From Lachnospiraceae bacterium (GTDB lineage Bacteria; Bacillota; Clostridia; Lachnospirales; Lachnospiraceae): 64,000 nucleotides of DNA. The position numbers and the translations under genes were made by a program. Where the stretch lies: NCBI GenBank assembly GCA_024692905.1, contig JAILLY010000066.1, positions 2,912 to 66,911 on the forward strand, written 5' to 3'. Below, in pieces: positions 45,766 to 61,810 of this stretch. The stretch's first letter is position 1. Each line of letters starts with the position of its first letter. The notes beneath the pieces are model-generated. The model had not been told where the DNA came from. It worked only from the letters and a program-made list of their open reading frames with translations, and made no database searches.

Positions 45766-45778
45766 ATCTTCCTCCTTA

Positions 45779-47127: not shown

Positions 47128-47136
47128 GAACTGTTC

Positions 47137-47799
47137 CTATTTCTTCCTGTGATCGATCCCGGAAGCCACCTTCATTCCGAGATTCTGTATGATCTGGAAT
47201 ATGATTATGAGCAATGCTACGGTCACGAGCATTATATCCGTCTTCCATCTGTAATAACCGTAACGTACGGCTATATCACCAAGACCGCCTCCGCCGACGG
47301 TACCCGACATTGCCGAATATCCCAGCAGCACGCCCGTAGTGATCGTGGCGCCGGTAACCAGTGAAGTCTTTGCCTCCACAAGCAGTACCTTCAATATTAT
47401 CTGCATATTGCTTGCACCCATGGCCCTTGCGGCTTCGATAACTCCGGCATCGACTTCGTTGAGCGCCGATTCGACCATTCTTGCGATGTAGGGCGCGGCA
47501 CATACGACAAGGGGTACTATGGTAGCGGTGGAACCGTAACTCTGACCCACTAACGCCCTTGTGAACGGGATAAGGAGTATAAGCAGGATAAGGAAAGGGA
47601 TACTTCTTATTATATTGCAGAATATATCAAGGATCCTGTATATTATCCTGTTTGGCTTAAGGCCGCCGCTCCTTGTGACATTCAGGACAACGCCAAGAGG
47701 CAGTCCGACCGCATATCCCATAAGCGCGGAAACAAGAGTCATATACAGCGTGTCCCTTATACCTTCAAGCAGCATTTCTATTATCTTCTGATCAAACAC
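47137..47799 (-). CDS. metI: Methionine ABC transporter permease
   Basis: 220 aa MetI-like (EAARAMGAS...). Overlaps the metN stop. Confidence 0.85.
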   Translation of the reverse strand: MFDQKIIEMLLEGIRDTLYMTLVSALMGYAVGLPLGVVLNVTRSGGLKPNRIIYRILDIFCNIIRSIPFLILLILLIPFTRALVGQSYGSTATIVPLVVCAAPYIARMVESALNEVDAGVIEAARAMGASNMQIILKVLLVEAKTSLVTGATITTGVLLGYSAMSGTVGGGGLGDIAVRYGYYRWKTDIMLVTVALLIIIFQIIQNLGMKVASGIDHRKK

Positions 47800-48805
47800 C
47801 TTCCCTCACCTCCGTCACGGAAAGTCCCCTCTCCTTAAGATACGCGATTATATGATTCTGGATATCCTCATCATCCGGCAGTCCCAAAAGGATCTCACCC
47901 TTGGCCTTGCCGCCGACGTTCCTCGTATCGGCGCCGAGGATGTTTACCGGAGCGTTGAATTTAAGTATGACGTTGGATATCACGGGTTCGAATGCAGAGT
48001 TTTCGGAAAAGACTATCCTTATCACACGCTCCGACTTAAGGCTGTCTATCGGCGAATACCTGCTCTTTTTGTTTGCGATAAGCTCCCTGGCCACATCCGT
48101 CTTCGGTGAAGCAAATATCTCCTCAACCAGTCCCTCCTCAACAAGACGGCCGTTCTCGATTATCGCAACCTTGCTGCAGATATCGGTGATGACGGACATC
48201 TGATGAGTTATGACCACGATCGTGATATTCAGTTTCTCGTTTATCTCCTTAAGAAGAGAAAGGATCGACTCTGTGGTCTGGGGATCGAGCGCACTCGTTG
48301 CCTCATCACACAGAAGTATATCCGGATTTGTCGCAAGTGCTCTTGCTATCGCTACACGCTGCTTCTGTCCGCCCGAAAGCTGTGACGGGTATGACTTTTC
48401 CTTATCGGAAAGATTGACCGTATCAAGCAGCTCCCTTGCCTTCTCCCTTGCCTTTTTCTTCGGCATCCCGGATATCTCAAGAGGAAAGCAGACATTATCG
48501 ATCACGTTCTTCTGCTCAAGCAGATTGAAACCCTGAAAGATCATGCCTATATCCCTTCGTTTTATCCTGAGTTCCTTTTCCGAAAGCTTTGAGAGATCGG
48601 TACCGCCTATGAGTACACGGCCTTCATTTGGTACCTCAAGATAATTGATCGAGCGGACCAGCGTACTCTTGCCGGCCCCGGACATACCTATTATCCCGTA
48701 TATCTCACCCTTTTCGATACTGAGGCTGACATCATTAAGCGCAACGATCTCATGGCCTCCCGCTTCAAACCTTTTGGTCAGGTTCTTGATCTCTATCTCA
48801 CTCAT
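47792..48805 (-). CDS. metN: Methionine ABC transporter ATP-binding protein with C-terminal NIL domain
   Basis: GMSGAGKST, LSGGQKQRV, LLCDE, plus a NIL-type C-terminus (VIRIVFSENS...ILGADTRNVGG). Confidence 0.9.
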   Translation of the reverse strand: MSEIEIKNLTKRFEAGGHEIVALNDVSLSIEKGEIYGIIGMSGAGKSTLVRSINYLEVPNEGRVLIGGTDLSKLSEKELRIKRRDIGMIFQGFNLLEQKNVIDNVCFPLEISGMPKKKAREKARELLDTVNLSDKEKSYPSQLSGGQKQRVAIARALATNPDILLCDEATSALDPQTTESILSLLKEINEKLNITIVVITHQMSVITDICSKVAIIENGRLVEEGLVEEIFASPKTDVARELIANKKSRYSPIDSLKSERVIRIVFSENSAFEPVISNVILKFNAPVNILGADTRNVGGKAKGEILLGLPDDEDIQNHIIAYLKERGLSVTEVREGV

Positions 48806-48843
48806 ATTAAACTCCTGCCGTTCATATTAAAATTTCAATCCCC

Positions 48844-48871
48844 ATTATACACGAAAAGCATGGATTGTGAA
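48844..48871 (-). promoter_or_regulatory. Candidate internal promoter ahead of metN
   Basis: Minus strand TTCACA (48871-48866), 16 nt spacer, TATAAT (48849-48844). Confidence 0.4.
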
Positions 48872-48881
48872 CCCGGCCCGG

Positions 48882-48913
48882 AAAAATATCCGGGAGGGCT
48901 TATGCCCTCCCGG
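48882..48913 (-). terminator. Intra-operon terminator/attenuating hairpin after the fused SBP gene
   Basis: Minus strand CCGGGAGGGC-ataa-GCCCTCCCGG (10-bp stem) then ATATTTTT. It starts 8 nt after the SBP stop. Confidence 0.7.
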
Positions 48914-48920
48914 GAGATAT

Positions 48921-50609
48921 TTAACCTTCAAAGAATACCACTGCTCCGTCATAAGTGTCTTCGATGAACTTCTTGATGTCATCAGACCTTAATACCTTGA
49001 CGAGAGCCTGGATCTTTGCATCATTCTCATGTCCCTCGTATACCGCGATGATATTAACGTAGGTCTTGGCCGCGACCGAATCCGTTGCCTCATAAGCTAT
49101 GGAATCATGTCCTACGGAATATCCTGCCTCAAGAGCATAGTTTCCGTTGAGTACAACGTATGAAACCTCACTGACGACCCTTGCGACCTGAGCCGCTTCA
49201 AGCTCGACAAACTTGATCTCATAGGGATTTTCGGTGATGTCGTTAACCGTGGCGGTAAGTCCGGCACCGTCCTTTAACGTAAGCAGTCCGTTGTCCTGAA
49301 GAAGAAGGAGTGCCCTTGCCTCATTGGTGGTATCATTGGGGATCGCTATCGTATCACCCTTTGCGATCTCATCGAGAGTCTTCTTGGTACCGGGATAGAT
49401 ACCGAAGGGTTCGTAATGGATATCGCCGGCATCGACAAGATGGGTTCCCTGCTCCTCATTGAAGCTGTTAAGATAAGGTACATGCTCTACATAGTTTGCA
49501 TCAAATTCACCTGATTCAACTACAAGGTTAGGCTGAACATAATCTTCAAACTCAGTTATCTCAAGCTTGTATCCGTGCTGTTCAAGAATCTTTGCTGCTT
49601 CTTCAAGTATCTCCGCATGAGGTATGGGAGAAGCGGCGATCTTTATAACCTCACCGTTTCCGTCCGGAATGTCGAGATCGGAAGCGGCTCCCGTTGAAAC
49701 AGGTGCGGCAACGACAGCGGTGTCTCCGCCTCCCTCAACTACGAGCGTATCCTCATAATCCTTTCCGTAGGTGTCGATAAGAGTGGCCTCATAATCCGCA
49801 TGGAAGAAATTCTCGTTTCCGAGTGCCTTTATCTCATCATTAAGCCAGTCAAGAAGTGTGCTGTTTCCTTTGCTTACGGCGGGAGCTATCGTATCCTGGC
49901 TTCCGAGTGAAGGGATGCCGACAACATATCCCTCGTTCTCAAGCGAATAAGCTATGACCTCTGTATTGTCGTTTGCCCATGCAACGCCTGTTCCGTTCTC
50001 AAACGATGTTTTTGCGGTTGCATATGTATCAAACTTCTGAAGCTTTATCTCCGGGTTGTTCTTCTCAAGATACGTCTCGGCCGTGGTTCCGGATATAACG
50101 ATCACCTGTTCATCGGCACCTATCTGATCAAGGCTCTCGATCACATGATCCTCATGCGAAACGACTCCGAGTGCAACATTCATATAAGGAAGGGCAAAGT
50201 CAACCTTCTCGGCCCTTTCTTCCGTTACCGTGAAGTTTGCAAGTATTATATCGACCTTGCCTGTCTCAAGATATTCAACCCTGCTTGCAGCCTCGGTTGA
50301 AACATAATTGATCTTAACTCCCAGATCCTTTCCTATCCTTTCGGCAAAGTATACGTCATATCCCTGATACTGTCCGTTCTCATCCACATATCCGAACGGA
50401 TTCTTATCGGAAAATACTCCGATGTTGATCTCACCGCTTGCCTTGATCTCATCAAGCGTCCTGTAGATCCTGTTTGCATCGTTCGTTGTTTCAGGGGCCG
50501 TACTCTGGACGGGAGCCGCTGCGCCTGCTGCGCACCCTGCGAGAAGTCCTCCGGTGAGTACTGCAGCCAGTGCTGTCCTTAACACATTCCTAAGTAGTTT
50601 TTTCTTCAT
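48921..50609 (-). CDS. Fused two-domain substrate-binding lipoprotein: SBP_bac_3 (polar amino acid/cystine-type) N-half plus MetQ/NlpA (methionine) C-half
   Basis: Lipobox LLAGC. Residues about 50-290 resemble family-3 amino-acid SBPs (GEINIGVFSDKNPFGYVDENGQYQGYDV...). Residues about 320-562 resemble MetQ (KIAASPIPHAEILE..., IAIPNDTTNEARALLLL). Confidence 0.8.
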   Translation of the reverse strand: MKKKLLRNVLRTALAAVLTGGLLAGCAAGAAAPVQSTAPETTNDANRIYRTLDEIKASGEINIGVFSDKNPFGYVDENGQYQGYDVYFAERIGKDLGVKINYVSTEAASRVEYLETGKVDIILANFTVTEERAEKVDFALPYMNVALGVVSHEDHVIESLDQIGADEQVIVISGTTAETYLEKNNPEIKLQKFDTYATAKTSFENGTGVAWANDNTEVIAYSLENEGYVVGIPSLGSQDTIAPAVSKGNSTLLDWLNDEIKALGNENFFHADYEATLIDTYGKDYEDTLVVEGGGDTAVVAAPVSTGAASDLDIPDGNGEVIKIAASPIPHAEILEEAAKILEQHGYKLEITEFEDYVQPNLVVESGEFDANYVEHVPYLNSFNEEQGTHLVDAGDIHYEPFGIYPGTKKTLDEIAKGDTIAIPNDTTNEARALLLLQDNGLLTLKDGAGLTATVNDITENPYEIKFVELEAAQVARVVSEVSYVVLNGNYALEAGYSVGHDSIAYEATDSVAAKTYVNIIAVYEGHENDAKIQALVKVLRSDDIKKFIEDTYDGAVVFFEG

Positions 50610-50698
50610 AATATTTCCCTCTTTTCTTTTATGATATATTGTTTCTTTCCGTATCGTTACTGTTACATTTATCTCCGAGTCCTTTATGTCCCGGCATC

Positions 50699-50724
50699 AA
50701 AAAAGCCCGGGATCTCTCCCGGGC
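50699..50724 (-). terminator. Attenuator terminator in the transporter-operon leader
   Basis: Minus strand GCCCGGGA-gaga-TCCCGGGC (8-bp stem) followed by TTTTTT. The 5' arm plus loop (GCCCGGGAGA) is a perfect 10-nt complement of TCTCCCGGGC (50795-50786) inside the leader ORF. Confidence 0.8.
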
Positions 50725-50736
50725 TCAGACTCGATC

Positions 50737-50850
50737 TTAACAGTGTGCATGACACGGAAGCCATACACGCCTAAGCCTTACATCAGCCCGGGAGAATAGC
50801 ATTCGACACATACACATCATACAACAGCCATTCATATATAAGCTTCTCAT
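50737..50850 (-). CDS. Cys/Met-rich leader peptide, 37 aa (MRSLYMNGCCMMCMCRMLFSRADVRLRRVWLPCHAHC)
   Basis: AAGGAGG lies 7 nt upstream of the ATG. Eight of nine consecutive codons (9-17) are Cys or Met. It shares the C-R-M-x-x-S-R core and CGAATGC...CTCCCGGG nucleotides with the metY leader ORF. Confidence 0.65.
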   Translation of the reverse strand: MRSLYMNGCCMMCMCRMLFSRADVRLRRVWLPCHAHC

Positions 50851-50880
50851 TGTCCTGCCTCCTTTCGATTCAATGGTAAT

Positions 50881-50920
50881 AAAATACACCCTAATTCCTA
50901 CTGTGTCAATAGGTTTTTAA
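50881..50920 (-). promoter_or_regulatory. Transporter-operon promoter with conserved operator-like box (copy 2 of 3)
   Basis: Minus strand TTAAAAACCTATTGACACAGTAGG (50920-50897). TTGACA (50909-50904), 17 nt spacer, TATTTT (50886-50881). Confidence 0.65.
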
Positions 50921-50927
50921 AAAAATT

Positions 50928-51179
50928 TTAATCCCCTACCTTTTTAATGTATAACTCAAACGTTCCGTCCTCATTATCAACGAGCTTAAGTACCTCGTGG
51001 CCCTCCTCCTTAACGCTCCTTGGCACGTTATTGACCGGTTCACCGTCATTTAAGTGGACCTGAAGTACCTGACCCTCATCAAGCTCATCAAGAGCGACCT
51101 TGGTCTTTACAAAGGTCACGGGACAGTTCACATCCGTAATATCAACAGTATCATCAACTTTAATATCTATCTCAGCCAT
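50928..51179 (-). CDS. TusA/SirA-like sulfurtransferase
   Basis: 83 aa from ATG 51179 (AAGGAGG 5 nt upstream). Conserved Cys in VNCPVTF and a two-layer alpha/beta pattern typical of TusA. Confidence 0.7.
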   Translation of the reverse strand: MAEIDIKVDDTVDITDVNCPVTFVKTKVALDELDEGQVLQVHLNDGEPVNNVPRSVKEEGHEVLKLVDNEDGTFELYIKKVGD

Positions 51180-51223
51180 TTTTTCCTCCTTTTGCGGGTC
51201 CCCGCAAAATACTTGTTTTATCA

Positions 51224-51652
51224 TCAGATCACGATCAGCTCTTCTTTTCGTACAGTCTTCTCTCCTTCTGCTTTCTCAATATGAAATGCATTAAGAACGG
51301 GGTTTTCTTCCTCCATGAGCGAAAGGATCAGATAACTCGCGCTGCTGTCATTGGCCAGCCGCTTATCTTCCTCTGACGGACGCGAGGGTGACGCCGGATG
51401 GGAGTGCCAGTTTCCGAGCGGTTTAAGGGCTCTTGCTCTCATATCCTTTACCGCATTGAGCTGTTCATGCGGATCGATCGTAAAATGCTCGCTGGTATGA
51501 TCGGTATTTGTCAGTATGTATACCTTACATATTTCCCGCACGCCATCCCTGCGATCGACTCCCGCTATCAGTCCGCAGGCTTCGTTCGGGCTTTCCTTAA
51601 GAGAGTGTTCATATATCATTTCAAAATCGCTGCGCTTTATCGTTATCTTCAT
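51224..51652 (-). CDS. JAMM/MPN+ metalloprotease (Mov34 family), copy 2
   Basis: NEACG glutamate motif and HSHPASPSRPSEED (HxHx7Sx2D). Start at ATG 51652 with GGAG upstream. Confidence 0.85.
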   Translation of the reverse strand: MKITIKRSDFEMIYEHSLKESPNEACGLIAGVDRRDGVREICKVYILTNTDHTSEHFTIDPHEQLNAVKDMRARALKPLGNWHSHPASPSRPSEEDKRLANDSSASYLILSLMEEENPVLNAFHIEKAEGEKTVRKEELIVI

Positions 51653-51706
51653 ATATTCTCCGTTCAACTATCATATGTGGTTCCAGCAGCAGCATCCAAA
51701 GAAAGA

Positions 51707-52522
51707 TCATTTGGACTGCTTCAGTTCACACTCCGCCTGCTCATAATCGATAAGCTCCGTTATCGTCGGTTCATCCGAACATACGGCACATCCCTTTCCG
51801 CGGGGAGGAAGCTTTATCTTATGAAATTCCATCTTAAGCGCATCATAAGTCAGCAGGTATCCCGAAAGCAGTTCGCCCGTACCCGTTATATACTTTACCG
51901 CCTCCATTGCCTGAAGCGAACCGATCACGCCGCCCATGGCTCCGATGACTCCGGCCTGTTTGCAGGTTGGGACCGCATCCTTTGGGGGCGGATTCTTAAA
52001 TATACATCTGTAGCAGGGGCTCTCGCCGGGGATTATCGTGGTGAGCTGCCCCTTGAACCGTATGATGCCGGCATGTGATAAGGGCTTTTTTTCCATCACA
52101 CATGCATCGTTGATAAGAAATTTTGCGGGGAAATTATCTGTCCCGTCCAGGATAAAATCATAATCCCTTATAAGCTCGCGTATGTTTGTACTGTTAACGA
52201 ACTGATAATAGGTATTCACAATCACATCCGGATTGATCGCACGCATGGTCTCTGCGGCTGATTCTACCTTCTTCTTCCCTATATCGGGTGTCGTATGTAT
52301 GACCTGCCTCTGAAGATTGGACAGATCGACAACATCTGCATCCGCTATGCCTATGGTTCCCACGCCGGCAGCGGCAAGATAAAGTGCGGCCGGTGCTCCG
52401 AGTCCTCCGGCACCTATTATGAGGACTTTTGCATTGAGCAGTTTTTTCTGCCCTTTTACGCCGATCTCCTTTAATATGATATGTCTTGAGTAACGCTCCA
52501 GCTGTTCATTTGTAAAAGCCAT
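51707..52522 (-). CDS. ThiF/MoeB/HesA-family E1-like adenylyltransferase
   Basis: RYSRHIIL..., GAGGLGAPAALYLAAAGVG nucleotide loop, CYRC and CAVC zinc pairs. TAATG overlap with the ThiS-like gene. Confidence 0.88.
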   Translation of the reverse strand: MAFTNEQLERYSRHIILKEIGVKGQKKLLNAKVLIIGAGGLGAPAALYLAAAGVGTIGIADADVVDLSNLQRQVIHTTPDIGKKKVESAAETMRAINPDVIVNTYYQFVNSTNIRELIRDYDFILDGTDNFPAKFLINDACVMEKKPLSHAGIIRFKGQLTTIIPGESPCYRCIFKNPPPKDAVPTCKQAGVIGAMGGVIGSLQAMEAVKYITGTGELLSGYLLTYDALKMEFHKIKLPPRGKGCAVCSDEPTITELIDYEQAECELKQSK

Positions 52523-52731
52523 TAAAGCCTTCCTCCTCCCATGAAGTATAAGAATTCGACCTCATCACCTTCGTTAAGAGCATGACTGTCAAAACTGCCT
52601 TTATCGATGAACTCCTCATTTACCGATACAGTCACATATTCCGGAGTTTCCACGTTTTCCTGCTCAATAAGCGCAGCGACCGTGATCCCGTCCGCAACTT
52701 CTTTTTTCTCTCCAGCTATAGTGATCTTCAT
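52522..52731 (-). CDS. ThiS/MoaD-like ubiquitin-fold sulfur-carrier protein with C-terminal extension (…FMGGGRL)
   Basis: 69 aa with a beta-grasp pattern (MKITIAGEKKEV...GDEVEFLYFMGG). The diglycine is followed by 2-3 extra residues. Strong RBS AGGAGGG. Confidence 0.8.
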   Translation of the reverse strand: MKITIAGEKKEVADGITVAALIEQENVETPEYVTVSVNEEFIDKGSFDSHALNEGDEVEFLYFMGGGRL

Positions 52732-52759
52732 GATCTTCCCTCCTGTAGTGTTTATTCTC

Positions 52760-53770
52760 TTAAATTATGTAGTACCACTCATCGCTCTGGCTTAATTCTT
52801 CACTTCTTATCTCGTTTTTGTCTGTCCGGTATTCCATCTCAAGATTCTTCATGCTGACCCTTGTGTTCGCATCGATGGAACAGGTGATGAATGCATTTCC
52901 TCCAATGACGGCATTCTCACCGATGACAGTCTCTCCTCCGAGGATTGATGCACCGGCATAGATCGTAACGTTATCGCATATGGTCGGATGTCTTTTCCTG
53001 CCGGAAAGTCTCTGCCCGCCTCTTGTGGAAAGAGCTCCTATCGTGACACCCTGATAAATCTTGACATTTCTGCCTATGACCGCCGTCTCGCCTATAACTA
53101 TCCCCGTACCGTGATCTATGAAGAAATATTTATCGATGGCCGCCCCCGGATGTATGTCTATGCCCGTCTTACTGTGCGCATATTCCGTCATGAGTCTCGG
53201 AAGAACGGGCACCTGTTCAAGATACAGCTCATGGGCCAGCCTGTACACCGTGATCGCCATCAGGCCGGGATATGCAAGAATGATCTCTTCATAACATCCC
53301 GCTGCCGGGTCCCCGTCATAAGCAGCCGAAAGATCCGTCTCTATATACTCACGTATCTTTGGTATCCTGGCAAAGAATGCCTTGCAGATACGGTAACTTT
53401 CCCGCTTCCTTTCATCATCGGTAAGGGTTCCCCTTTTTCTGCAGTAATCAAGGGCCAGATACACCTGTTTGCTCAGATGATAAAATATATCCTCGATGAT
53501 GACGGCAAAACTGTTCCTTGGATTATATATCTTGTAAGAGCGGTCCCTGAAATAACCCGGAAATATTATCCTGAAAAGATTTCTTATAAGTTCATGAACC
53601 TCTGCTTTGTCAGGTTTGTTATATATATTGACCTCATCGATATGTTTTTTTCCTTCAAAATCCTCAAATATGTTTTTGACGATAAGATCTATCTCTTCTT
53701 CCCTTATTATCTCATTCACCGGTATTCTCCTTATATCCTCATGTACTGCCGGATCCATCCGGCAGCACAT
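52760..53770 (-). CDS. Serine O-acetyltransferase, long form (about 150-aa N-terminal domain), encapsulin-operon associated
   Basis: C-terminal hexapeptide SAT core (GIDIHPGAAIDKYFFIDHGTGIVIGETAVIG). 336 aa. The N-terminus reads MCCRM. Confidence 0.85.
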   Translation of the reverse strand: MCCRMDPAVHEDIRRIPVNEIIREEEIDLIVKNIFEDFEGKKHIDEVNIYNKPDKAEVHELIRNLFRIIFPGYFRDRSYKIYNPRNSFAVIIEDIFYHLSKQVYLALDYCRKRGTLTDDERKRESYRICKAFFARIPKIREYIETDLSAAYDGDPAAGCYEEIILAYPGLMAITVYRLAHELYLEQVPVLPRLMTEYAHSKTGIDIHPGAAIDKYFFIDHGTGIVIGETAVIGRNVKIYQGVTIGALSTRGGQRLSGRKRHPTICDNVTIYAGASILGGETVIGENAVIGGNAFITCSIDANTRVSMKNLEMEYRTDKNEIRSEELSQSDEWYYII

Positions 53771-53782
53771 GAAGGCATTACT

Positions 53783-55504
53783 TTAAGCAAATGTCTTTAA
53801 TACTTTAACCAGTGCATCAATGTCATCCGGAGAATTATAAAGCGCGATAGTCGGCCTTACCGAACTTTCATATCCGAAACGGCGCAGAACCGGCTGCGCA
53901 CAGTGATGTCCCGTGCGAACAGCTATCCCGTAGCTGTCAAGCCTCTTTCCGACCTCTTCATCCGAATATCCGTCAAGCTTGAATGACAATGCCGATGACT
54001 TGTTGAGTGCGGTCCCTATAAGATGAAGTCCCTTTACCATTTTCATCTCTTTCATGGCATATGTTAAAAGTTCATGCTCCCAGCGGTAAACGCAGGGCAT
54101 GCCGATATCGGTAAGATAGGAAAGCGCCGCGCCAAGACCGACAGCATCGGCTATGCTTCCCGTTCCGGCTTCGAATTTGTTCGGGGCGGGATTATATATC
54201 GTCCTTTCAAAAGTCACATCCGCGATCATATTTCCGCCGCCGTGATAAGGCCTGGCTGCCTCGAGCAGTTCCTTCTTTCCGTAAACCGCTCCTATGCCCG
54301 TCGGAGCAAAGATCTTATGTCCGGAGAATACAAAGAAATCCGCATCAAGCGCCGATACATTCACCGGTATATGTGCCACCGACTGGGCTCCGTCAATGAG
54401 TATGCGTACTCCGTGCCTGTGTGCGATTGCAATGAGCTCCTCAACCGGAGTGACTGTTCCAAGCACATTGGACACATGGGTCACCGCAACAAATCTGGTC
54501 CGCTTTGTGAAAAGCTTCTCATACTCATGAAGTATGAGCTGACCGGTCTCATCGCAGGGTATAACCTTTATCACCGCACCCGTTTCCTGGGCTATCAGCT
54601 GCCAGGGAACTATGTTCGCATGGTGTTCAAGGATCGAGACGATGATCTCGTCTCCGGGTTCGAGCATCGGCTTTACATAAGCATTTGCCACGAGGTTTAT
54701 ACCTTCGGTCGTGCCTCGCACGAAGATGATCTCATCAGATGAAGGCGCACCGATAAAATCGCGCACGATATCCCTTGCTTTTTCGTATGCATCCGTCGAT
54801 CTTGCCGCCAGAGTATGGGCACCCCTGTGCACATTGCTGTTCTCATGCCCATAATAATACGAGAGTCTGTCTATAACGGCCTTTGGACGCTGCGTGGTCG
54901 CTCCGTTATCGAGCCATATCAGCGGATTGCCGTTTATCTGCTCTTTGAGGATTGGAAAATCATCCCTGATCTGGGCAAGCGACTTGCTGCCTATCCTTAT
55001 CTGGTCGTTCCTCGACGAAGCGGGGGCTGCCTTTGAGGCATCGCCGCTGACACTGTCACCTCCAAGCGATGTGGGGACATCTATCCTGCGGCCTTTTTCA
55101 TACGCCTGCGCCTGAGACATGACTGTCGGGGAATAACTCACGCTCTTTTCACCGGTAAGCACGGGTATATCCCCCATACCGGGGATCATTTCCGCCTCCG
55201 GAGCACTTACCGCCTCAACCGTCTGAAGATACTGATCGGTGTATCCCCCGCCGTAAGCGAAAGGGTGCTCCCAATCAAACGGTTCTGTCACCGGTGTGCT
55301 CAAGCCCGGGATTTCTCCGGCCGTTCCGGCATACGTGCCGGTCGAAGGTATATTCACTTCGGGAACGGATGCTGCCGGTATATCTGTCTCGGGAATACCG
55401 TATACACCTTCCGTAAGATCCGGAAACATCTCATTTGCAAGAATACTGAGTTCTCCCGCGCTTAAGATGCCGTCAGGATTATCAATCGTAATCATAATAT
55501 TCAC
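53783..55504 (-). CDS. SufS/CsdA-type cysteine desulfurase with about 170-aa disordered N-terminal extension (predicted encapsulin cargo)
   Basis: The catalytic part has HHANIVPWQ, SGHK (PLP lysine) and RTGHHCAQP (active-site Cys). The ORF-track start is GTG 55504 and an ATG at 55495 is also possible. It overlaps the encapsulin 3' end. Confidence 0.88.
   Translation of the reverse strand: MNIMITIDNPDGILSAGELSILANEMFPDLTEGVYGIPETDIPAASVPEVNIPSTGTYAGTAGEIPGLSTPVTEPFDWEHPFAYGGGYTDQYLQTVEAVSAPEAEMIPGMGDIPVLTGEKSVSYSPTVMSQAQAYEKGRRIDVPTSLGGDSVSGDASKAAPASSRNDQIRIGSKSLAQIRDDFPILKEQINGNPLIWLDNGATTQRPKAVIDRLSYYYGHENSNVHRGAHTLAARSTDAYEKARDIVRDFIGAPSSDEIIFVRGTTEGINLVANAYVKPMLEPGDEIIVSILEHHANIVPWQLIAQETGAVIKVIPCDETGQLILHEYEKLFTKRTRFVAVTHVSNVLGTVTPVEELIAIAHRHGVRILIDGAQSVAHIPVNVSALDADFFVFSGHKIFAPTGIGAVYGKKELLEAARPYHGGGNMIADVTFERTIYNPAPNKFEAGTGSIADAVGLGAALSYLTDIGMPCVYRWEHELLTYAMKEMKMVKGLHLIGTALNKSSALSFKLDGYSDEEVGKRLDSYGIAVRTGHHCAQPVLRRFGYESSVRPTIALYNSPDDIDALVKVLKTFA
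54995..55504 (-). other. Predicted intrinsically disordered cargo-loading domain of the desulfurase
   Basis: Low-complexity Pro/Gly/Ser/Thr-rich region. It contains GELSILANEMFPDL, which resembles the LARLANEFF-type loading motif reported for family 2A encapsulin cargo. Confidence 0.55.
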
Positions 55505-56438
55505 CTACTTCTACATCCTCAAGCACCGCTATCGCATCATCCGCAAGTATCGCAGCCGAGCAGTACAGAGATAATAAGTAAGATGCCACTCCCTTATCAT
55601 CGATGCCTCTGAAACGCACCGACAGTCCTCTTGAATGTTCGTTCTTGAGTCCTGCCTGGAATAATCCGACAACACCCCTCTTTGCTTCACCCGTACGGAT
55701 GAGAAGGATGTTGGTCTTTCCGCTTTCGGACTTGGGATTCTTAAGTCCGTCAACCAGGAGCTTGTCCGTAGGGATCACAGGGATCCCCCTCCATGTAAGG
55801 AAGTTTCCTCCTGCAATGTTTACAACTACAGGCGGTACACCCCTCTTCGTGCACTCTCTCTCAAATGCTGCGATAGCCCTGGGGTGAGCAAGGAAAAATG
55901 AGGGCTCCTTCCATACCTTGGTTATGAGTTCATCAAGATCATCGGGCGTAGGTGCACCGTTGCGTGTCTGGATCCTCTGGGAATCAGGCACGTTCTTCAA
56001 AAGGCCGTAATCATCATTATTGATCAGCTGGCTCTCCTGACGCTCCCTTAAAGACTCGATCGCAAGTCCGAGCTGCTCCTGGACCTGATCGTAGGGTACA
56101 CTGTAAACATCCTCCACGGATGTGTTCACATTGATGATCGTTGAGATCGAATTAAGGACATATTCGCGGGGTTTCGTCTCATACTCAACATATCCCTGCG
56201 GAATTATGTCTGACTTTTTCGTCTGGGAGCAGAGCACGTCGAGCGGGGTTTCGCCTTCAACCACCCTGTTCACCCTGTAGATACCGGTCTCCAGCCCCTT
56301 GAACTCAAGGAATTTGGTGAGCCATCTGGGGGTGAGTGCTCCAAACTGGGGCTTGGTCTTGGTAATGTTCGCAAGATTATAGGCCGCCTGAGAATCAAGC
56401 GCGTTGATCCCCTCTTTCTTAACTGTTTCGTTTGCCAT
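55482..56438 (-). CDS. Family 2A encapsulin shell protein (SrpI-like, HK97 fold)
   Basis: 318 aa from ATG 56438 (GGAGG 7 nt upstream). Motifs I recall from SrpI-type shells: LTPRWLTKFL, GIYRVNRV, KPREYVLNSISTIINV, ERQESQLIN, TRNGAPTPDDLDELITKVWKEPSFFLAHPRAIAAFERECTKRGVPP, LLSLYCSAAILADDAIAVL. No cNMP-binding insertion. Confidence 0.8.
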   Translation of the reverse strand: MANETVKKEGINALDSQAAYNLANITKTKPQFGALTPRWLTKFLEFKGLETGIYRVNRVVEGETPLDVLCSQTKKSDIIPQGYVEYETKPREYVLNSISTIINVNTSVEDVYSVPYDQVQEQLGLAIESLRERQESQLINNDDYGLLKNVPDSQRIQTRNGAPTPDDLDELITKVWKEPSFFLAHPRAIAAFERECTKRGVPPVVVNIAGGNFLTWRGIPVIPTDKLLVDGLKNPKSESGKTNILLIRTGEAKRGVVGLFQAGLKNEHSRGLSVRFRGIDDKGVASYLLSLYCSAAILADDAIAVLEDVEVGEYYDYD

Positions 56439-56518
56439 TTCAGTTCCTCCTGTCTTATGATTGATCATTTTCTATTAGATAGTCTGCTCCTGACAGACGT
56501 ATCCATCGTAAATATATA

Positions 56519-57976
56519 TCAGAGCCATGCGCCCTCGTGCGAAAACATGATATCCTTCATCGCCTCTATACCGCCCTTTAAGTTGTACATCGGGCCGTTA
56601 TACCCCGCTTCCCTTAACGTATTGATCGCGAGGATGCTTCGTTTGCCCTCCCTGCAGACAAAGACCGTATCCTTATCCGGATCAAGTTCATCCTTTCTCC
56701 TTGCAAGCTGGCCTATCGGGATCACTATCGCATCCGGGAAACGCATTATCGAGCGCTCGTGCGGTTCACGTACATCGATTATGGTCATGGGATCCTTGTC
56801 CTCTATTCGCCTGGCGAGTTCCTCCGGAGTGAATCCTTCGACAGGGATCTCATCTTCCGCAGTTTTAAGATGGCAGAATTCCTCGTAATCAAAATCCTCA
56901 ACCCTGAATATCGAGGGATCTGCCCCGCATATCGGACACTTACGGTCCTTCTTCACCTTAACGATCCTGGATCCGAGATACAGGCTGTCGATCGTAAGCA
57001 GCCTGCCGTCAAGATGTTCTCCTATCCCGATGATCAGTTTAAGTGCTTCATTTGCTGCGATGCTCCCGATGATTCCGGGCAACGGACTTATCGTGCCGCC
57101 CTCCGCACATGTCGGGACAAGCCCCGGCTCAGGCGGTTCGGGAAACAGGCATCTTAAACAGGGACCTCCGTTAAGATTGAAGATGCCGACCCTGCCTTCA
57201 TACTGGTATATCGCCCCGAATACCAGGGGTATGCCCAGAAGTGCACAGGCATCGTTTATAAGATATCTGGACCTGTGATCGCCGGTGCAGTCTATCACAA
57301 GATCGTAGCCGTCGATCATGGATACTATGTTGTCGGCATTGATCCTTTCATTCTCCGATTCAAAATTTATGTTCCTGTTGGTGTTCCTGACTGTATCCCG
57401 TGCCGATGCCACCCTGGGACGCTTAACATCACGGGCACTGTGTATTACCTGACTCTGAAGGTCTTCAAGAGAAACATCATTATCATCGACCACTTTTATC
57501 GTTCCGACACCTGCTGCCGCAAGATACTGGATAACGGGCGAACCCAGCGCCCCCGCCCCCATGACAACGACTCTTGACGCTTTGATCCTCTTCTGGCCCT
57601 TGACTCCTATCTCTCTTAGCAGAAGATGTTTGCCGAAACGTTCAACCTCCTGATCGTCAAGACCGACTTCCTTCCTCCGTTCATCCGGTATGAGATTATC
57701 CGAAGGCGCACCTCCTGCGATCGACGGTAGCAGGAGTACCTCATCATCGGGTTTTAGTTTTCTGTACCACTGATCGGGTTCACTCCTGTCCTCATCCCCG
57801 ACATATAACCTTATAAAGCTGTTAAGTCCTCCGTCTGCATTGAATATCACCTTTTTTGAATCCGGATATTCATCGGTCAGGAAATTGAGGATACTTTTAA
57901 TATCATCCCCCGAAACTTCCACGAAACTGTTCCTTCCGAAAAATCCCCTTAAAGTAGCCGATATATAAACCTTCAT
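56519..57976 (-). CDS. Triple fusion: MoaD/ThiS-like Ubl domain (ends ...LLLPSIAGG) plus ThiF/MoeB E1 adenylyltransferase plus C-terminal rhodanese
   Basis: Residues 1-92 show a beta-grasp pattern with a diglycine at the junction. E1 core GAGALGSPVIQYLAAAGVG with CLRC/CPIC. Rhodanese active loop VCREGKRS. Confidence 0.85.
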   Translation of the reverse strand: MKVYISATLRGFFGRNSFVEVSGDDIKSILNFLTDEYPDSKKVIFNADGGLNSFIRLYVGDEDRSEPDQWYRKLKPDDEVLLLPSIAGGAPSDNLIPDERRKEVGLDDQEVERFGKHLLLREIGVKGQKRIKASRVVVMGAGALGSPVIQYLAAAGVGTIKVVDDNDVSLEDLQSQVIHSARDVKRPRVASARDTVRNTNRNINFESENERINADNIVSMIDGYDLVIDCTGDHRSRYLINDACALLGIPLVFGAIYQYEGRVGIFNLNGGPCLRCLFPEPPEPGLVPTCAEGGTISPLPGIIGSIAANEALKLIIGIGEHLDGRLLTIDSLYLGSRIVKVKKDRKCPICGADPSIFRVEDFDYEEFCHLKTAEDEIPVEGFTPEELARRIEDKDPMTIIDVREPHERSIMRFPDAIVIPIGQLARRKDELDPDKDTVFVCREGKRSILAINTLREAGYNGPMYNLKGGIEAMKDIMFSHEGAWL

Positions 57977-58432
57977 TTACTTCTGTCCTCCAATTATGAT
58001 CACCGGCCGCACCGCCTTTGTACAGGTATCCTGTCCGGACTTATCCGGGAGCATTCTTATATAACCGGCCGTCTCCGTACAGCCCTTCTCATCCACCGAT
58101 ACGATCACATATATCAAACCGGGTACAGCATGCTTAATATCTTCATCCGAGCATATTGCGGGCTTGTCCGGATGTGAATGATAAAAGCCAAGCAGATCCA
58201 TCCCGGCTGTTTCCGCCTCGTTCTCTATCTGCCGGAGCTGACCGGCATCTATGCGGTAGCCCTCAGCCGCACTTATTCCGGAAAGTGTATTCCGAGCGGG
58301 CCTTACCATATTAATCCGCCGTGTGTCCTTATACCCAAGCAGTGCTCCGCATCCCTCGCAGGGATATGCACGGCTTAAATGCTCTCTCATGAGTTCATAT
58401 TCATCATTGTCAAACCAAACAACATCTTCCAT
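57977..58432 (-). CDS. JAMM/MPN+ metalloprotease (Mov34 family), copy 1
   Basis: PCEGCG glutamate motif and HSHPDKPAICSDED (HxHx7Sx2D). Confidence 0.85.
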   Translation of the reverse strand: MEDVVWFDNDEYELMREHLSRAYPCEGCGALLGYKDTRRINMVRPARNTLSGISAAEGYRIDAGQLRQIENEAETAGMDLLGFYHSHPDKPAICSDEDIKHAVPGLIYVIVSVDEKGCTETAGYIRMLPDKSGQDTCTKAVRPVIIIGGQK

Positions 58433-58451
58433 ATGATACCGTCAATGGCCT

Positions 58452-59684
58452 CTACCGGGAGACCGACTTTACAGCCTGCACAAAATCTTCCACCAGATCC
58501 TCTGCATCCTCTATGCCCACACTGACCCTTACGGTATCTTCATATACACCTGCTGCATTCATCTCTTCCACGGCTGTCTTATTGTACAGTGTCGATGCGG
58601 GATGTATGACCAGCGTACGAAGATCGCCGATGTTACTTGCTATCATCGCATATTTCAGCGAATCGATGATCTTAAATGCCCTTTCCTTAGACCCGGCCCG
58701 GAAGCTTAATATACCGCCCCCAAGGCCTCTGAGTTCCTCTTTGGCGATCTTATTGTACGGATGATCCGGGAGAGTCAGATAATTGACCTTAATCCCTTCA
58801 ATCTCATAAAGTGCACGGGCAAGTTTATCGGCGTTATCACAGATCCTTTCCATCCTAAGTCCGAGCGTATCGGTTCCTATATAGTTAAGGAATGCGTTCA
58901 TCGGGGCCATGCAGCCGCCGATATTCTCCCATATATCGTTACGAAGCCTTACGGAAAAGGCCATCGGTCCGTATTTCTTATAATCCGAAAGTGCAGTATG
59001 CTTATCCGCATCCCACTTAAACTTACCGCCGTCGACTATGATGCCGCCGATCGAATTACCTCCCCCGTTTAAATATTTGGAAGTCGAATGAATGACTGCA
59101 TCCGCCCCCATCGACAGAGACCTGGCCAGATATGGGGTTGCCGTCGTTGCGTCCACAAAAAGCGGGATCCCGGCTTCATGGGCCGCCGCAGCCGTCCCGG
59201 CCACATCCATGACTTTCAGTGAGGGATTGGCGATCAGCTCACCGAATACCACCTTAGTCCTTTCGTTTATGAACGGCCTTATCGAGTCGCCGTTCATCTC
59301 AGCGGTATAAACGGTATGGATACCAAGCTTTTCAAGATCATGTAACAGTTCTATTGTCCCACCGTACAGACCGCTGCAGGTTATTATCTCATCACCGCTT
59401 CCACATACCGCAAGCAATGCAGACGCGATGGCAGACATCCCGCTGCTGCAGCAGACAGCACCCACGCCTCCTTCAAGTTCGCTTATCCTCTGCTCGAAGG
59501 CGGCTATCGTAGGATTTCCGATGCGCGTATATGCATACCCCATGCTCTTATGTGCAAAAACCTTCTCAAGTTCCTCCATACTCTCGTACCTGAAAGCACT
59601 GACCTGAGAGATGGGCGGGAGCATCTCACGCGATGCATATCCCCGGGATGTTTTTCCGTGTAAAAGCTTCGTATTAAACTGCAT
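58452..59684 (-). CDS. O-acetylhomoserine/O-acetylserine sulfhydrylase-like PLP enzyme (second MetY/CGS-family paralogue)
   Basis: 410 aa, Cys/Met-metabolism PLP family (HSTSKYLNGGGNS contains the PLP lysine). Confidence 0.85.
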   Translation of the reverse strand: MQFNTKLLHGKTSRGYASREMLPPISQVSAFRYESMEELEKVFAHKSMGYAYTRIGNPTIAAFEQRISELEGGVGAVCCSSGMSAIASALLAVCGSGDEIITCSGLYGGTIELLHDLEKLGIHTVYTAEMNGDSIRPFINERTKVVFGELIANPSLKVMDVAGTAAAAHEAGIPLFVDATTATPYLARSLSMGADAVIHSTSKYLNGGGNSIGGIIVDGGKFKWDADKHTALSDYKKYGPMAFSVRLRNDIWENIGGCMAPMNAFLNYIGTDTLGLRMERICDNADKLARALYEIEGIKVNYLTLPDHPYNKIAKEELRGLGGGILSFRAGSKERAFKIIDSLKYAMIASNIGDLRTLVIHPASTLYNKTAVEEMNAAGVYEDTVRVSVGIEDAEDLVEDFVQAVKSVSR

Positions 59685-59695
59685 TTTTGATCCCT

Positions 59696-60076
59696 TTACC
59701 CGTTTGATCTCTTCTTTTCATAATCATTAAGCGCCGACTGTATGGCTTCCTCCGCAAGGACCGAGCAGTGCATCTTATAATCCGGAAGTCCGTCCAGCGC
59801 CTCCGCCACTGCCTTGTTCGTAAGCTTCATCGCTTCACTCACGGGCTGCCCCTTTATAAGTTCGGTCGCCATAGAACTTGATGCTATGGCACTTCCGCAT
59901 CCGAAGGTCTCAAACTTCACATCCTTTATGATGTCGTCCTCGATCTTTAAATACATCTTCATAATGTCGCCGCATCTTGCATTCCCGACTTCTCCGATGC
60001 CGTCCGCATCTTCTATGACTCCGACATTTCTAGGATTGCGAAAATGATCCATTACTTTTTCACTGTATAAAGCCAT
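59696..60076 (-). CDS. iscU: Fe-S cluster assembly scaffold IscU/NifU-N
   Basis: 126 aa with the three conserved Cys in GNARCGD, FGCGSAIASS and MHCSVLA. Confidence 0.93.
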   Translation of the reverse strand: MALYSEKVMDHFRNPRNVGVIEDADGIGEVGNARCGDIMKMYLKIEDDIIKDVKFETFGCGSAIASSSMATELIKGQPVSEAMKLTNKAVAEALDGLPDYKMHCSVLAEEAIQSALNDYEKKRSNG

Positions 60077-60097
60077 GATCCTTCCTCCAAATTCTTC

Positions 60098-61282
60098 CTA
60101 TAAAATATGCTGTTTCTTTCCCGACTCAAGATCACGCCAGATAGGCGAGAAGCTCCTTAAATACTCAACCACTTCTCTTACCGACGAAATGATAAAGTCA
60201 ACATCCTTATCACTTATATCCTCTCCTATACTGAGTCTTAAAGACCCGTGCGCCACATCATGTACCCTGCCTATCGCAAGGAGCACATGGGAAGGATCAA
60301 GCGATCCGGATGTACATGCGCTTCCGGATGATGCCTGTATCCCTTTATCATCAAGCAGGAGCAGGAGTGACTCTCCCTCTATACCCTCAAAACAAAAATT
60401 CACGTTCGAAGGCAGTCTCTTCTTTTCGTCGCCGTTTAGCGCAGAGTGCGGTATCTCCCTTAATCCCTTTATCAGGCGGTCACGCTTTTTTATGAGTTCC
60501 CCCGATGTTTTATCCATTCCCGCAGCAGCTTCCTTAAGGGCCTTTGCCATGGCTGCGATCGCCGGAACGTTCTCCGTACCCGCACGAAGCCCCCTCTCCT
60601 GGGCGCCGCCTTCTATCAGATTTGTAAGTCTTATGCCCTTTTTCGCATAAAGGAAACCGACACCTTTGGGGCCGTGGAACTTATGGCCCGATGCCGAAAG
60701 AAGATCGATGTTGTCATCCACGACATTTACCGGGATATGTCCCACAGCCTGTACGGCATCAGTATGGAAGAGGACCTTCTTTTCCCTGCAGATCACTCCT
60801 ATCTCCCTTATGGGCTGGATCGTTCCGATCTCATTATTTGCATACATTATCGTAACAAGGCAGGTATCGTCCCTTATCGCCTCTCCGACCTCGGAAGGGA
60901 TAAGGAGTCCGTTCTCATGCACATCAACAAGTGTTATCTCAAAGCCTTCCTTCTTAAGCTTATTAAGGGTGTGAAGTACCGCATGGTGCTCAAATGCAGA
61001 AGATACTATATGAAGCTTTCCGTTCTTTTTTCCAAGAGCGGCTGCCGAAAGGATCGCCTGGTTATCTGCCTCGCTCCCGCCGGAGGTGAATAATATCTCC
61101 CGTCTGCCGGCTCCTATCACACCTGCTATATCCTCTCTTGCTTCCTCGAGGATCTCCCTGGCTCTCTGTCCGAAGCCGTATAAGCTCGACGGATTACCAT
61201 AGTTTTCCTTCATTACCGATATCATTGTCTTCATTGCCGTCTCACTCATTCTGGTGGTCGCGGCATTATCTGCATATATCAC
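60098..61282 (-). CDS. iscS: Cysteine desulfurase NifS/IscS (class I)
   Basis: 394 aa with SGHKFHGPKG (PLP lysine) and SSGSACTSG active-site loop. GTG start 5 nt after GGAGGTG. Confidence 0.93.
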   Translation of the reverse strand: MIYADNAATTRMSETAMKTMISVMKENYGNPSSLYGFGQRAREILEEAREDIAGVIGAGRREILFTSGGSEADNQAILSAAALGKKNGKLHIVSSAFEHHAVLHTLNKLKKEGFEITLVDVHENGLLIPSEVGEAIRDDTCLVTIMYANNEIGTIQPIREIGVICREKKVLFHTDAVQAVGHIPVNVVDDNIDLLSASGHKFHGPKGVGFLYAKKGIRLTNLIEGGAQERGLRAGTENVPAIAAMAKALKEAAAGMDKTSGELIKKRDRLIKGLREIPHSALNGDEKKRLPSNVNFCFEGIEGESLLLLLDDKGIQASSGSACTSGSLDPSHVLLAIGRVHDVAHGSLRLSIGEDISDKDVDFIISSVREVVEYLRSFSPIWRDLESGKKQHIL

Positions 61283-61309
61283 GTTATCACCTCCAGGTTA
61301 ATTGACTGT

Positions 61310-61351
61310 ATTATAACGACTACTTACCTACCATGTCAATAGGTTTTTTAA
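61310..61351 (-). promoter_or_regulatory. Promoter of the sulfur operon with conserved operator-like box (copy 3 of 3)
   Basis: Minus strand TTAAAAAACCTATTGACATGGTAGG (61351-61327). TTGACA (61339-61334), 18 nt spacer, TATAAT (61315-61310). Confidence 0.65.
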
Positions 61352-61359
61352 AAAGGGAC

Positions 61360-61389
61360 TTGATTTACCCATTAACCCTGCGGTATAAT
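61360..61389 (+). promoter_or_regulatory. Candidate promoter of the Rrf2 regulator gene
   Basis: TTGATT (61360-61365), 18 nt spacer, TATAAT (61384-61389). It directly abuts the conserved box. Confidence 0.5.
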
Positions 61390-61414
61390 AGGCAAAAATC
61401 AAAGGAGAAGAAAA

Positions 61415-61810
61415 ATGATCTCTACACGCGGAAGATACGCGATACGCGTTATGATAGACCTTGCCCAGAATCAGGACGAGCACTATATACCCCTTAAGGA
61501 CATAGCGGCAAGGCAGGAAATATCCAAAAAATATCTCGAGATAATAGTTAAGGATATGGTGGCCGGAGGACTCTTAAAGGGTGCCAGCGGCAAGGGCGGC
61601 GGATACAAGCTGTGCCGTGCGCCGGAAGAATATAATATAGGTGAGATAATCGAACTGATGGAGGGCACTCTTTCATCGGTTGCATGTCTTGCCGACAAGA
61701 CCAACGTCTGCCCGAGGAGAAAGTCCTGCCAGACACTTCCCATGTGGGAGGAATATGATAAGATGGTGCACGATTTCTTCTACGGGAAAAAGTTAAGTGA
61801 CCTTATCTAA
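61415..61810 (+). CDS. Rrf2-family transcriptional regulator (IscR/CymR-like) with three-Cys putative Fe-S ligands
   Basis: MISTRGRYAIRVMIDLA... is a winged-helix Rrf2 N-terminus. Cys triad in CLADKTNVCPRRKSC. Divergent from iscS. Confidence 0.88.
   Translation: MISTRGRYAIRVMIDLAQNQDEHYIPLKDIAARQEISKKYLEIIVKDMVAGGLLKGASGKGGGYKLCRAPEEYNIGEIIELMEGTLSSVACLADKTNVCPRRKSCQTLPMWEEYDKMVHDFFYGKKLSDLI

Follow-up and report, generated by a model that had tools for sequence, protein, structure and literature searches.

The stretch of DNA analysed here, referred to as the window, comprises 64,000 nucleotides of a contig (JAILLY010000066.1) from a metagenome-assembled genome of the Lachnospiraceae. It contains three copies of a short promoter-associated sequence, the box, downstream of which lie nifS/iscS (box 1), a MetQ-type transporter operon (box 2) and metY (box 3). 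A gene for a 131-residue regulator of the Rrf2 family (61415-61810, plus strand) is divergent from nifS/iscS. The initial annotation of this DNA had described the box as a conserved 24-mer with the dyad CCTA-N9-TAGG, and had assigned it to the Rrf2 protein. Our analysis suggests that the box is probably the operator of this divergently encoded regulator.

Box copies, promoters and the Rrf2 gene in the window

The 17-mer CCTATTGACAYRGTAGG was found in three exact copies, all on the minus strand (44984-45000, 50897-50913 and 61327-61343). The chance level was estimated from 100 dinucleotide shuffles of the window; 0.02 copies were expected, and allowing two mismatches did not yield any further match. 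The full 24-mer occurs at 50897-50920 without mismatch, at 61327-61350 with one and at 44984-45007 with two mismatches (expectation 0.00), and the three positions given in the initial annotation proved correct to within one base. The dyad CCTA-N9-TAGG does not occur in the 64 kb outside the three box copies, with 0.62 occurrences expected. When one mismatch was allowed in the dyad, 14 sites were seen and 17.8 were expected, so that no additional weak site in the window is supported. A TTGACA-containing site at 33833 was considered as an operator and rejected: it lies in an unannotated region, and the one-mismatch set is no larger than chance. Recent duplication or a mobile cassette was ruled out as the source of the three boxes, because the similarity between the three regions stops within about 30 bp on either side.

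Each box copy covers the -35 hexamer of a sigma-70 promoter close to consensus. The core of predicted operator 1, CCTATTGACATGGTAGG, is an exact match at 61327-61343 on the minus strand (29 bp with A/T flanks, 61321-61349) and overlaps the -35 element of the nifS/iscS operon promoter (61310-61339, minus strand). This promoter, found by the promoter scan as TTGACA-18-TATAAT at 61339-61310 with a score of 12/12, consists of TTGACA at 61339-61334, a spacer of 18 nt and TATAAT at 61315-61310, and is followed by the GTG start codon at 61282. The core of predicted operator 2, CCTATTGACACAGTAGG (50897-50913, minus strand, exact match), lies over the -35 element of a promoter at 50909-50881 (TTGACA-17-TATTTT, score 10/12), and that of predicted operator 3, CCTATTGACACGGTAGG (44984-45000, minus strand, exact match), over the -35 element of a TG-extended promoter at 44996-44968 (TTGACA-17-TATTAT, score 11/12). 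The spacers of 18, 17 and 17 nt bear out the earlier description of TTGACA as a -35 hexamer with 17-18 nt spacing. At all three promoters the dyad centre is near position -31. The dyad covers the -35 hexamer and the first third of the spacer, the hexamer itself lying inside the 7-9 variable central bases.

The divergently encoded protein belongs to the Rrf2 family, as indicated by Pfam model PF02082 (1.9e-31; 109.4 bits over residues 2-131, cut-off 30) and by the superfamily model TIGR00738 (114.9 bits, cut-off 73.3). An NCBI protein from a metagenome-assembled genome has the identical sequence. The window protein scored under the cut-offs of the IscR equivalogs (TIGR02010, 92.5 vs 207.55 bits; NF008110, 66.2 vs 275 bits) and of the CymR equivalog (NF047409, 85.7 vs 195 bits, residues 2-97 only). 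The closest solved structure is that of T. potens IscR (PDB 4CIC; 2e-18, residues 2-130), and the next matches, to CymR (2Y75, 1.9e-15; 3T8R) and E. coli IscR, involve mainly the N-terminal domain. Cys91, Cys99 and Cys105 form the C-x7-C-x5-C triad that had been noticed in the initial annotation. These residues are putative ligands of an iron-sulfur (Fe-S) cluster and were invariant in 43 of 43 aligned homologues of 40-100% identity. Fe-S cluster binding by the protein appears likely, though not assured. The recognition helix ISKKYLEIIVKD (residues 36-47) does not vary among orthologues with 61% identity or more, whereas paralogues of at most 52% identity have YLEQ or YLES instead. Between 39.4 and 64 kb, the scanned open reading frames (ORFs) yielded no other regulator, which agrees with the earlier view of the Rrf2 gene as the sole regulator gene nearby.

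The promoter of the Rrf2 gene (TTGATT-18-TATAAT, 61360-61389, plus strand, score 10/12) stands back to back with operator 1. It begins 16 nt from box 1, and can be said to abut it, as had been stated. A probable auto-operator, CCCTGCGGTATAATAGG, is located at 61376-61392 in the CC-N13-GG register and covers the -10 element of this promoter.

Structure, distribution and gene context of the dyad

About 200 related loci, found either with the motif or with the Rrf2 protein, were compared. An exact-match scan with AACCTATTGACAYRRTAGG over 185,579 species, one genome per species, gave at least 120 stretches, and 140 exact sites were listed. From the information content of the pattern, roughly 35 chance hits are estimated for the whole collection. 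The counts given below for motif-found loci and sites refer to these listed matches (120 loci of up to 8 kb each, 140 sites). For the reverse test, 70 non-redundant metagenome loci were found with the Rrf2 protein.

The consensus of 39 sites from the protein-found loci, tAtttACCTATTGACAtAGTAGGtaAATaG, has the form of an inverted repeat with 10-nt arms (TATTTACCTA/TAGGTAAATA) and a centre of 9 nt, and the consensus can be written as a 29-bp palindrome, TATTTACCTAY-N7-RTAGGTAAATA. The listed motif-found sites showed conservation at positions that had not been fixed by the search: +18 to +24 read TAAATRG with 0.5-1.0 bit each, -3 and -2 are only A or T, and the -10 region reads TAtaaT at +28 to +33. 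All listed matches are in promoter position.

The dyad was found outside the box as well. In 1.45 Mb of fetched loci there were 32 non-box occurrences of CCTAY-N7-RTAGG, compared with 4.85 in shuffled sequences (maximum 8), which is about 6.6-fold above chance. These dyads bear the same tta/taa flanks. Approximately half of the 32 lack TTGACA and have unrelated centres, such as CCTATCATGTTGATAGG in locus L062 and CCTACAACATTAGTAGG in locus L126; the TTGACA-less dyads are typically located just downstream of the -10 element of a box promoter, and also over the -10 element of the Rrf2 promoter. The second operators and the perfect auto-operators described below fix the 17-bp CCTAY-N7-RTAGG register with TTA/TAA-type flanks. 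The functional unit is thus the 17-bp core CCTAY-N7-RTAGG with A/T flanks, and TTGACA is merely embedded in its variable centre. A 25-bp outer palindrome, CCTATT-N13-AATAGG, was considered as the unit and dropped, since no more than 38 of 137 sites have G at position +25. The dyad CCTA-N9-TAGG named in the initial annotation was borne out as the conserved unit, one that exists without the -35 hexamer. The 24-mer drawn around it included the dyad correctly, but stops about 6 nt short of the end of the 29-bp palindrome on the 3′ side. As for the A-rich 5′ part of the 24-mer, its 3′-most few bases are operator flank, and the rest looks like the A/T richness of a UP element.

By ORF clustering, the first gene downstream of the box was of the metY type at 46 of the 140 sites (four more once short leader ORFs were skipped), iscS at 26, a cysK-size PALP gene at 13 and MetQ/NlpA at 11, together 96 of 140. 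Twenty of the remaining downstream genes were sampled with Pfam. Most were sulfur-related and encoded glutamate-cysteine ligase family 2, CysD, sulfite reductase, PatB-type aminotransferases, and components or permeases of amino-acid ATP-binding cassette (ABC) transport; ThiF, MOSC, an NMT1-type binding protein and Rrf2 genes were also in the sample, and a MetN gene was recognised from its sequence only. An M20 peptidase, a GDSL hydrolase, an energy-coupling factor S component and one product without Pfam hit had no obvious sulfur role. Genes for cysteine and methionine synthesis, interconversion and uptake, as in a CymR-type regulon, were thus found downstream of the box. The initial annotation had allowed for a motif scattered over many unrelated promoters; the listed sites were almost only at sulfur amino-acid and Fe-S genes.

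Phylogenetic footprinting, which had been proposed as a check, revealed the same box on contigs with close Rrf2 homologues. In locus L001, whose Rrf2 protein is 85% identical to that of the window, boxes are upstream of iscS, of a leader ORF with metY, and of a third leader. The box of L002 precedes iscS-iscU-metY-cysK, and that of L007 precedes metY-cysK, with the Rrf2 gene downstream. A counterpart of operator 1, upstream of iscS and divergent from the Rrf2 gene, is present in L001, L002 and 14 motif-found loci.

The association between the box and the Rrf2 gene was seen from both directions. Forty of the 120 motif-found loci contain an Rrf2 homologue. In 26 of these the gene is divergent and starts within 250 bp of the box, the target on the other side being iscS (14 loci), metY (9) or another gene (3), and 66-250 bp separate the Rrf2 gene from the box no matter which gene is the divergent target. 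A further three boxes stand immediately before a gene of the Rrf2 family. When ORF families were ranked over the 120 loci, Rrf2 came third (39 loci) after metY (59) and cysK (45); the sole other recurrent regulator was a LysR gene, present in 7 loci at variable positions. In the reverse test, 40 of the 70 protein-found loci had a divergent box within 300 nt (28 exact, 10 with one mismatch, 2 weaker).

Orthologues with at least 61% identity retain the promoter of the Rrf2 gene itself, along with its spacer, as cTTGATTTACCTATTyACCyTGcGGTATAATAGGtAAAA, even where the neighbouring gene is different. TA[TG]AATAGG was found upstream of the Rrf2 gene in 56 of the 70 protein-found loci. In several other lineages (for example L015 and L040) a perfect dyad, CCTACTGTTATAATAGG, occupies the same -10 position.

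With this co-localisation from the motif side and from the protein side, the assignment of the box to Rrf2 made in the initial annotation is supported, but the regulon is not the local one that had been supposed. It extends to several clostridial families, to a Negativicute and to spirochaetes. The listed matches are from Lachnospiraceae (about 55), Ruminococcaceae/Oscillospiraceae (about 20) and Treponema/spirochaete metagenome-assembled genomes (13), and further from Saccharofermentans, Christensenellales, Anaerovoracaceae and Anaerovibrio; two (Saprospiraceae, Parabacteroides) are probable chance hits. Besides the spirochaetes, nearly all come from gut or rumen Clostridia. Cultured organisms with the box include Lachnospiraceae bacterium C6A11 and YSD2013, Ruminococcaceae bacterium YAD3003, Anaerovibrio lipolyticus DSM 3074 and Anthropogastromicrobium aceti.

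Candidate regulators of the box

Several observations weigh against the box being the operator of the adjacent Rrf2 protein. The support consists throughout of co-localisation and conservation. Rrf2 genes classically adjoin iscS, so the co-localisation is perhaps partly synteny; yet 12 of the 26 tight divergent pairs do not involve iscS. No box was found near the Rrf2 gene in 30 of the 70 protein-found loci, nor within 10 kb of it in loci L003-L006, which represent one species. In the window, the right flanks of the three sites (TAAGTAG, AATTAGG and CAGGTGG) fit the consensus TAAATAG partially, and the left half of the auto-operator is degenerate. A fourth cluster ligand is not evident in the protein sequence: there is no His after the third Cys, which is followed by QTLPMW, and no Asp or Glu at position 8. 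Further Rrf2 paralogues of similar specificity may exist in the genome, and 40-52% identical ones adjoin boxes in L025, L065 and L073. In the 13 spirochaete loci among the listed matches, no Rrf2 gene was found within 8 kb, nor any regulator gene next to the box.

These spirochaete loci (L027, L042, L046, L060, L062, L068, L078, L081, L101, L113, L114, L117 and L126) have a GC content of 35-46% and spirochaete-like neighbouring genes. Their boxes are upstream of metY, metQ, cysD, a sulfite reductase gene or a radical SAM gene, and often a second CCTAY-N7-RTAGG follows just after the -10 element. They could reflect either a spread of the regulon across phyla or a different binder.

Distant Rrf2 paralogues (31-48% identical, helix YLES or YLEQ, some with extra cysteines) are encoded directly downstream of a box in L073 (6388-6851), L025 (672-1220), L069 and L098. 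Because of this position they are predicted to be targets of the box. The paralogue gene in L025 is followed by SufC/SufB-like genes, recognised by sequence only.

CymR, which in Bacillus and Staphylococcus is the master repressor of cysteine metabolism, provides a model for a different mode of action at the same site. The Rrf2 protein might bind the dyad in the CymR manner, in complex with CysK, depending on O-acetylserine or thiol oxidation and not on an Fe-S cluster, or its apo form might be the repressor. We regard this as unlikely. The two proteins are Rrf2-family members and are similar in the N-terminal domain (2Y75, 1.9e-15), and the window protein aligns to CymR (2Y75 and 3T8R) about as well as to E. 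coli IscR. Their regulons are alike in comprising sulfur amino-acid genes: cysK, metY and Cys/Met transport here resemble the B. subtilis regulon, in which CymR represses cysK and the genes of Cys/Met conversion and sulfur amino-acid transport (PMC3828012), and cysK is the second most frequent family in the motif-found loci (45 of 120). A fourth cluster ligand, moreover, is not obvious. The regulon described here, however, also contains iscSU, and the alignments to CymR end before the Cys region (residues 2-96), with a CymR equivalog score (85.7 bits) far under the cut-off of 195. CymR of B. subtilis binds no Fe-S cluster and needs CysK (PMC9338935), whereas the triad of the window protein, invariant in homologues of 40-100% identity, is the hallmark of cluster-binding Rrf2 proteins.

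It is distinctly improbable that the box, although a real operator, is bound by a regulator encoded elsewhere, a LysR-type Cys/Met regulator or another Rrf2 paralogue, the adjacent Rrf2 gene being a mere member of the regulon. LysR-type regulators bind T-N11-A, a core which can be read in CTA-N9-TAG, and in two of the 7 loci with a LysR gene this gene is immediately upstream of the box. The spirochaete boxes without a nearby Rrf2 gene, and those adjoined by paralogues with a different helix (YLEQ/YLES), would also fit a binder encoded elsewhere. But LysR genes are six times rarer in the listed loci than Rrf2 genes (39-40 loci) and variable in position, and no LysR homologue was found in the 64-kb window; on these grounds LysR was rejected as the regulator of the box. 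The Rrf2 gene, in contrast, keeps the box at 66-250 bp regardless of the divergent target and has the same dyad over its own -10 element, its recognition helix is constant where the operator is, and the CC-N13-GG spacing is that of an Rrf2-type site.

LysR genes near box-controlled metY or metQ were seen, for example, in L012 (2554-3486) and L125 (3600-4532), and in five other loci. They may encode an additional Met/Cys regulator in some lineages.

That the box is a favoured strong-promoter context (UP-like A-tract, consensus -35, preferred spacer bases) without a dedicated regulator is hardly credible and was rejected on gene specificity and on the dyads without TTGACA: although TTGACA is invariant inside the box, the upstream DNA is A/T-rich like a UP element and the promoters are near consensus, none of 25 other promoter-like sites between 44 and 62 kb has CCTA...TAGG, the box is essentially confined to sulfur genes across the listed genomes, dyads beyond it are well above chance downstream of and over -10 elements, and RNA polymerase has no reason to prefer the 10-nt inverted-repeat flanks.

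Predicted regulation, target operons and related systems

If the box is the operator of the divergent Rrf2 protein, a winged-helix homodimer of this protein presumably binds the inverted repeat CCTAY-N7-RTAGG, a mode of binding typical of the family. The bound dimer would exclude RNA polymerase from the near-consensus promoters. We infer repression because dyads over the -35 element, downstream of the -10 element and over the -10 element are in repressor positions. Class II activators bind around -41.5 and MerR-type promoters have spacers of 19-20 nt, and the placement of the dyad matches neither. The fourth, weaker copy over the -10 element of the Rrf2 promoter would give autorepression. Because the three-Cys triad is invariant, the occupancy or state of an Fe-S cluster is the most likely signal: the cluster-loaded repressor would bind when sulfur and Fe-S supply are sufficient, and loss of the cluster under cysteine, sulfide or Fe-S shortage would release the promoters. 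Such a regulon would couple Fe-S assembly and sulfur mobilisation (nifS/iscS-iscU, encapsulin/ThiF/TusA) to the synthesis and uptake of methionine and cysteine (metY, MetQNI-type transporter).

The genes downstream of box 1 (50928-61282, minus strand; identified with Pfam and NCBIfam) are tightly spaced, which suggests a single operon. It starts with nifS/iscS, iscU, a sulfhydrylase-like pyridoxal phosphate enzyme, JAB, ThiF-rhodanese and a type 2A encapsulin, and continues with a cysteine desulfurase cargo, serine acetyltransferase, a ThiS-like ORF, ThiF, JAB and TusA. The type 2A (SrpI-like) encapsulin gene (55482-56468) adjoins the gene for the 573-residue cysteine desulfurase, the pair occupying 53783-56468 on the minus strand between ThiF-rhodanese and serine acetyltransferase. 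The first ~195 residues of the desulfurase have no Pfam match, as expected for a cargo protein. The pair is apparently co-transcribed with nifS/iscS-iscU from the putative operator-controlled promoter. Between serine acetyltransferase and ThiF, an apparent gap of 237 nt is occupied by an unlisted ORF of 69 codons (52522-52731, minus strand), whose product looks like a ThiS/MoaD-type sulfur carrier with the C-terminus GGGRL (GG plus an extension) and which is followed by ThiF, JAB and TusA. This arrangement suggests a pathway with a thiocarboxylate carrier matured by a protease. A second pair of JAB and ThiF-rhodanese genes is located at 56519-58432.

Unit 2 (45031-50609, minus strand; Pfam) encodes a fused SBP_bac_3/NlpA (MetQ-like) binding protein, a MetN-type ATPase with NIL domain, three permeases and a second ATPase. 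Unit 3 is metY (43376-44659, minus strand), encoding an O-acetylhomoserine/O-acetylserine sulfhydrylase (TIGR01326, 635 bits, cut-off 495). Cobalamin genes follow directly after metY: cobQ, precorrin-8X methylmutase and a cbiL-type methyltransferase (41734-43404 and on to 39438, minus strand). As listed, the cobQ ORF overlaps the stop of metY by 29 nt.

A leader ORF and a terminator come after box 2 and after box 3; there are none after box 1. The Cys/Met-rich leader of unit 2, MRSLYMNGCCMMCMCRMLFSRADV..., is encoded at 50737-50850 (minus strand) and followed by a terminator at 50726-50703 found by the terminator scan; it is a candidate second regulatory layer of this unit. The Cys/Met leader before metY, MNGIRTYAQENEIMCCCRMQNSRVSN... 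(44815-44937, minus strand), precedes a terminator with a CCCGGG stem at about 44786-44755. Leader homologues were found in about 33-35 loci across Lachnospiraceae, Ruminococcaceae, Christensenellales and Anaerovibrio, with the conserved peptide M-C-C-(C)-R-M-x-x-S-R-A-x-x-M-A-G and the conserved nucleotide core TGYCGAATG...CTCCCGGG, in which CTCCCGGG is able to pair with the 5′ arm of the terminator with the CCCGGG stem. A search against Rfam 15 gave no match at the gathering threshold over the window, and none at E values up to 1 over 44600-51000, the region of both leaders. At metY and the transporter operon the Cys/Met leader peptide with its terminator would add transcription attenuation. 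The initial annotation had seen the Rrf2 regulon as layered over leader-peptide attenuators; the leader layer was found at metY and metQ-type units (the TGYCGAATG core at 19 of 46 and 8 of 11 of the listed sites, respectively) but not at iscS (0 of 26) or cysK (0 of 13).

Compared with E. coli IscR, the window protein has the same fold and three conserved Cys, adjoins an iscS-iscU unit which it presumably represses, and, judged from the position of the putative auto-operator, may be autoregulated. The ligands of E. coli IscR are Cys92, Cys98, Cys104 and His107 (C-x5-C-x5-C-x2-H), whereas the window protein has C-x7-C-x5-C and no His after the third Cys. The helices are also different (YLEII in the window protein, YLEQL in IscR), the window gene is divergent from iscS whereas iscR is first in its operon, and the regulon of the window takes in Met/Cys synthesis and uptake. 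The predicted operator is an inverted repeat of about 25-29 bp, with CC and GG 13 nt apart as in the E. coli type 2 motif AxxxCCxxAxxxxxxxTAxGGxxxT (PMC4169559). The half-sites CCTAY/RTAGG differ from the CCxxA/TAxGG of type 2, and there is no likeness to the type 1 motif ATASYYGACTRWWWYAGTCRRSTAT. The 27-bp B. subtilis CymR consensus likewise conforms to CC-N13-GG, its right half being ATMGG.

Systems of this kind are already known, since clostridial Rrf2 proteins encoded beside iscSU respond to cysteine limitation and a related regulon has been predicted. CPE1786-iscS-iscU of C. perfringens is derepressed on cysteine limitation, with CPE1786 as the proposed regulator (PMC2940859), and for C. 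acetobutylicum a cysteine regulon of the CymR/IscR type has been predicted (PMC3828012). The genes for T. potens IscR (4CIC), CPE1786 and CAC1675/CAC2236 head iscRSU-type operons, whereas the window gene is divergent, and those paralogues in the analysed loci that have the canonical YLEQ helix share only 40-52% identity with the window protein. A literature search retrieved no paper on this motif or on the Lachnospiraceae Rrf2 subfamily, an absence which does not establish novelty. It retrieved no sequences of clostridial CymR/IscR sites either, and the site as a text string matched only primers and unrelated items. The element described here is statistically well founded and conserved unusually widely and precisely, and by the usual criteria of comparative genomics its assignment to the adjacent Rrf2 protein is well supported.

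A wider proposal can be put forward tentatively. An Fe-S Rrf2 subfamily, characterized by the ISKKYLEIIVKD helix and the 29-bp operator, may be the master regulator of sulfur assimilation in a large share of the gut and rumen anaerobes, where it would merge the roles of IscR and CymR and sense sulfur via its own cluster. It would share its almost invariant operator across phyla with rumen and gut Treponema, switch the encapsulin/desulfurase compartment, and be stacked with an uncatalogued leader peptide (M-C-C-R-M..S-R-A..M-A-G) at metY and metQ. We consider this proposal possible and, on balance, somewhat doubtful.

The mechanism suggested for the window is a conventional repressor-operator arrangement, and the conceptual advance is modest. 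For anaerobe genetics, the combination of a near-consensus promoter and an operator embedded in it could be used as a compact expression element that responds to sulfur. If the reading is true, it provides an example in which an Rrf2 protein of the Fe-S type governs the supply of sulfur amino acids and not just Fe-S assembly, and ties the regulation of a type 2A encapsulin/cysteine desulfurase to the sulfur status of the cell. If the assignment of the box to the Rrf2 protein holds, one short pattern is enough to predict which sulfur, methionine, cysteine and Fe-S genes form the regulon in hundreds of genomes of uncultured Lachnospiraceae, Oscillospiraceae/Ruminococcaceae and relatives, for which there is almost no regulatory knowledge.

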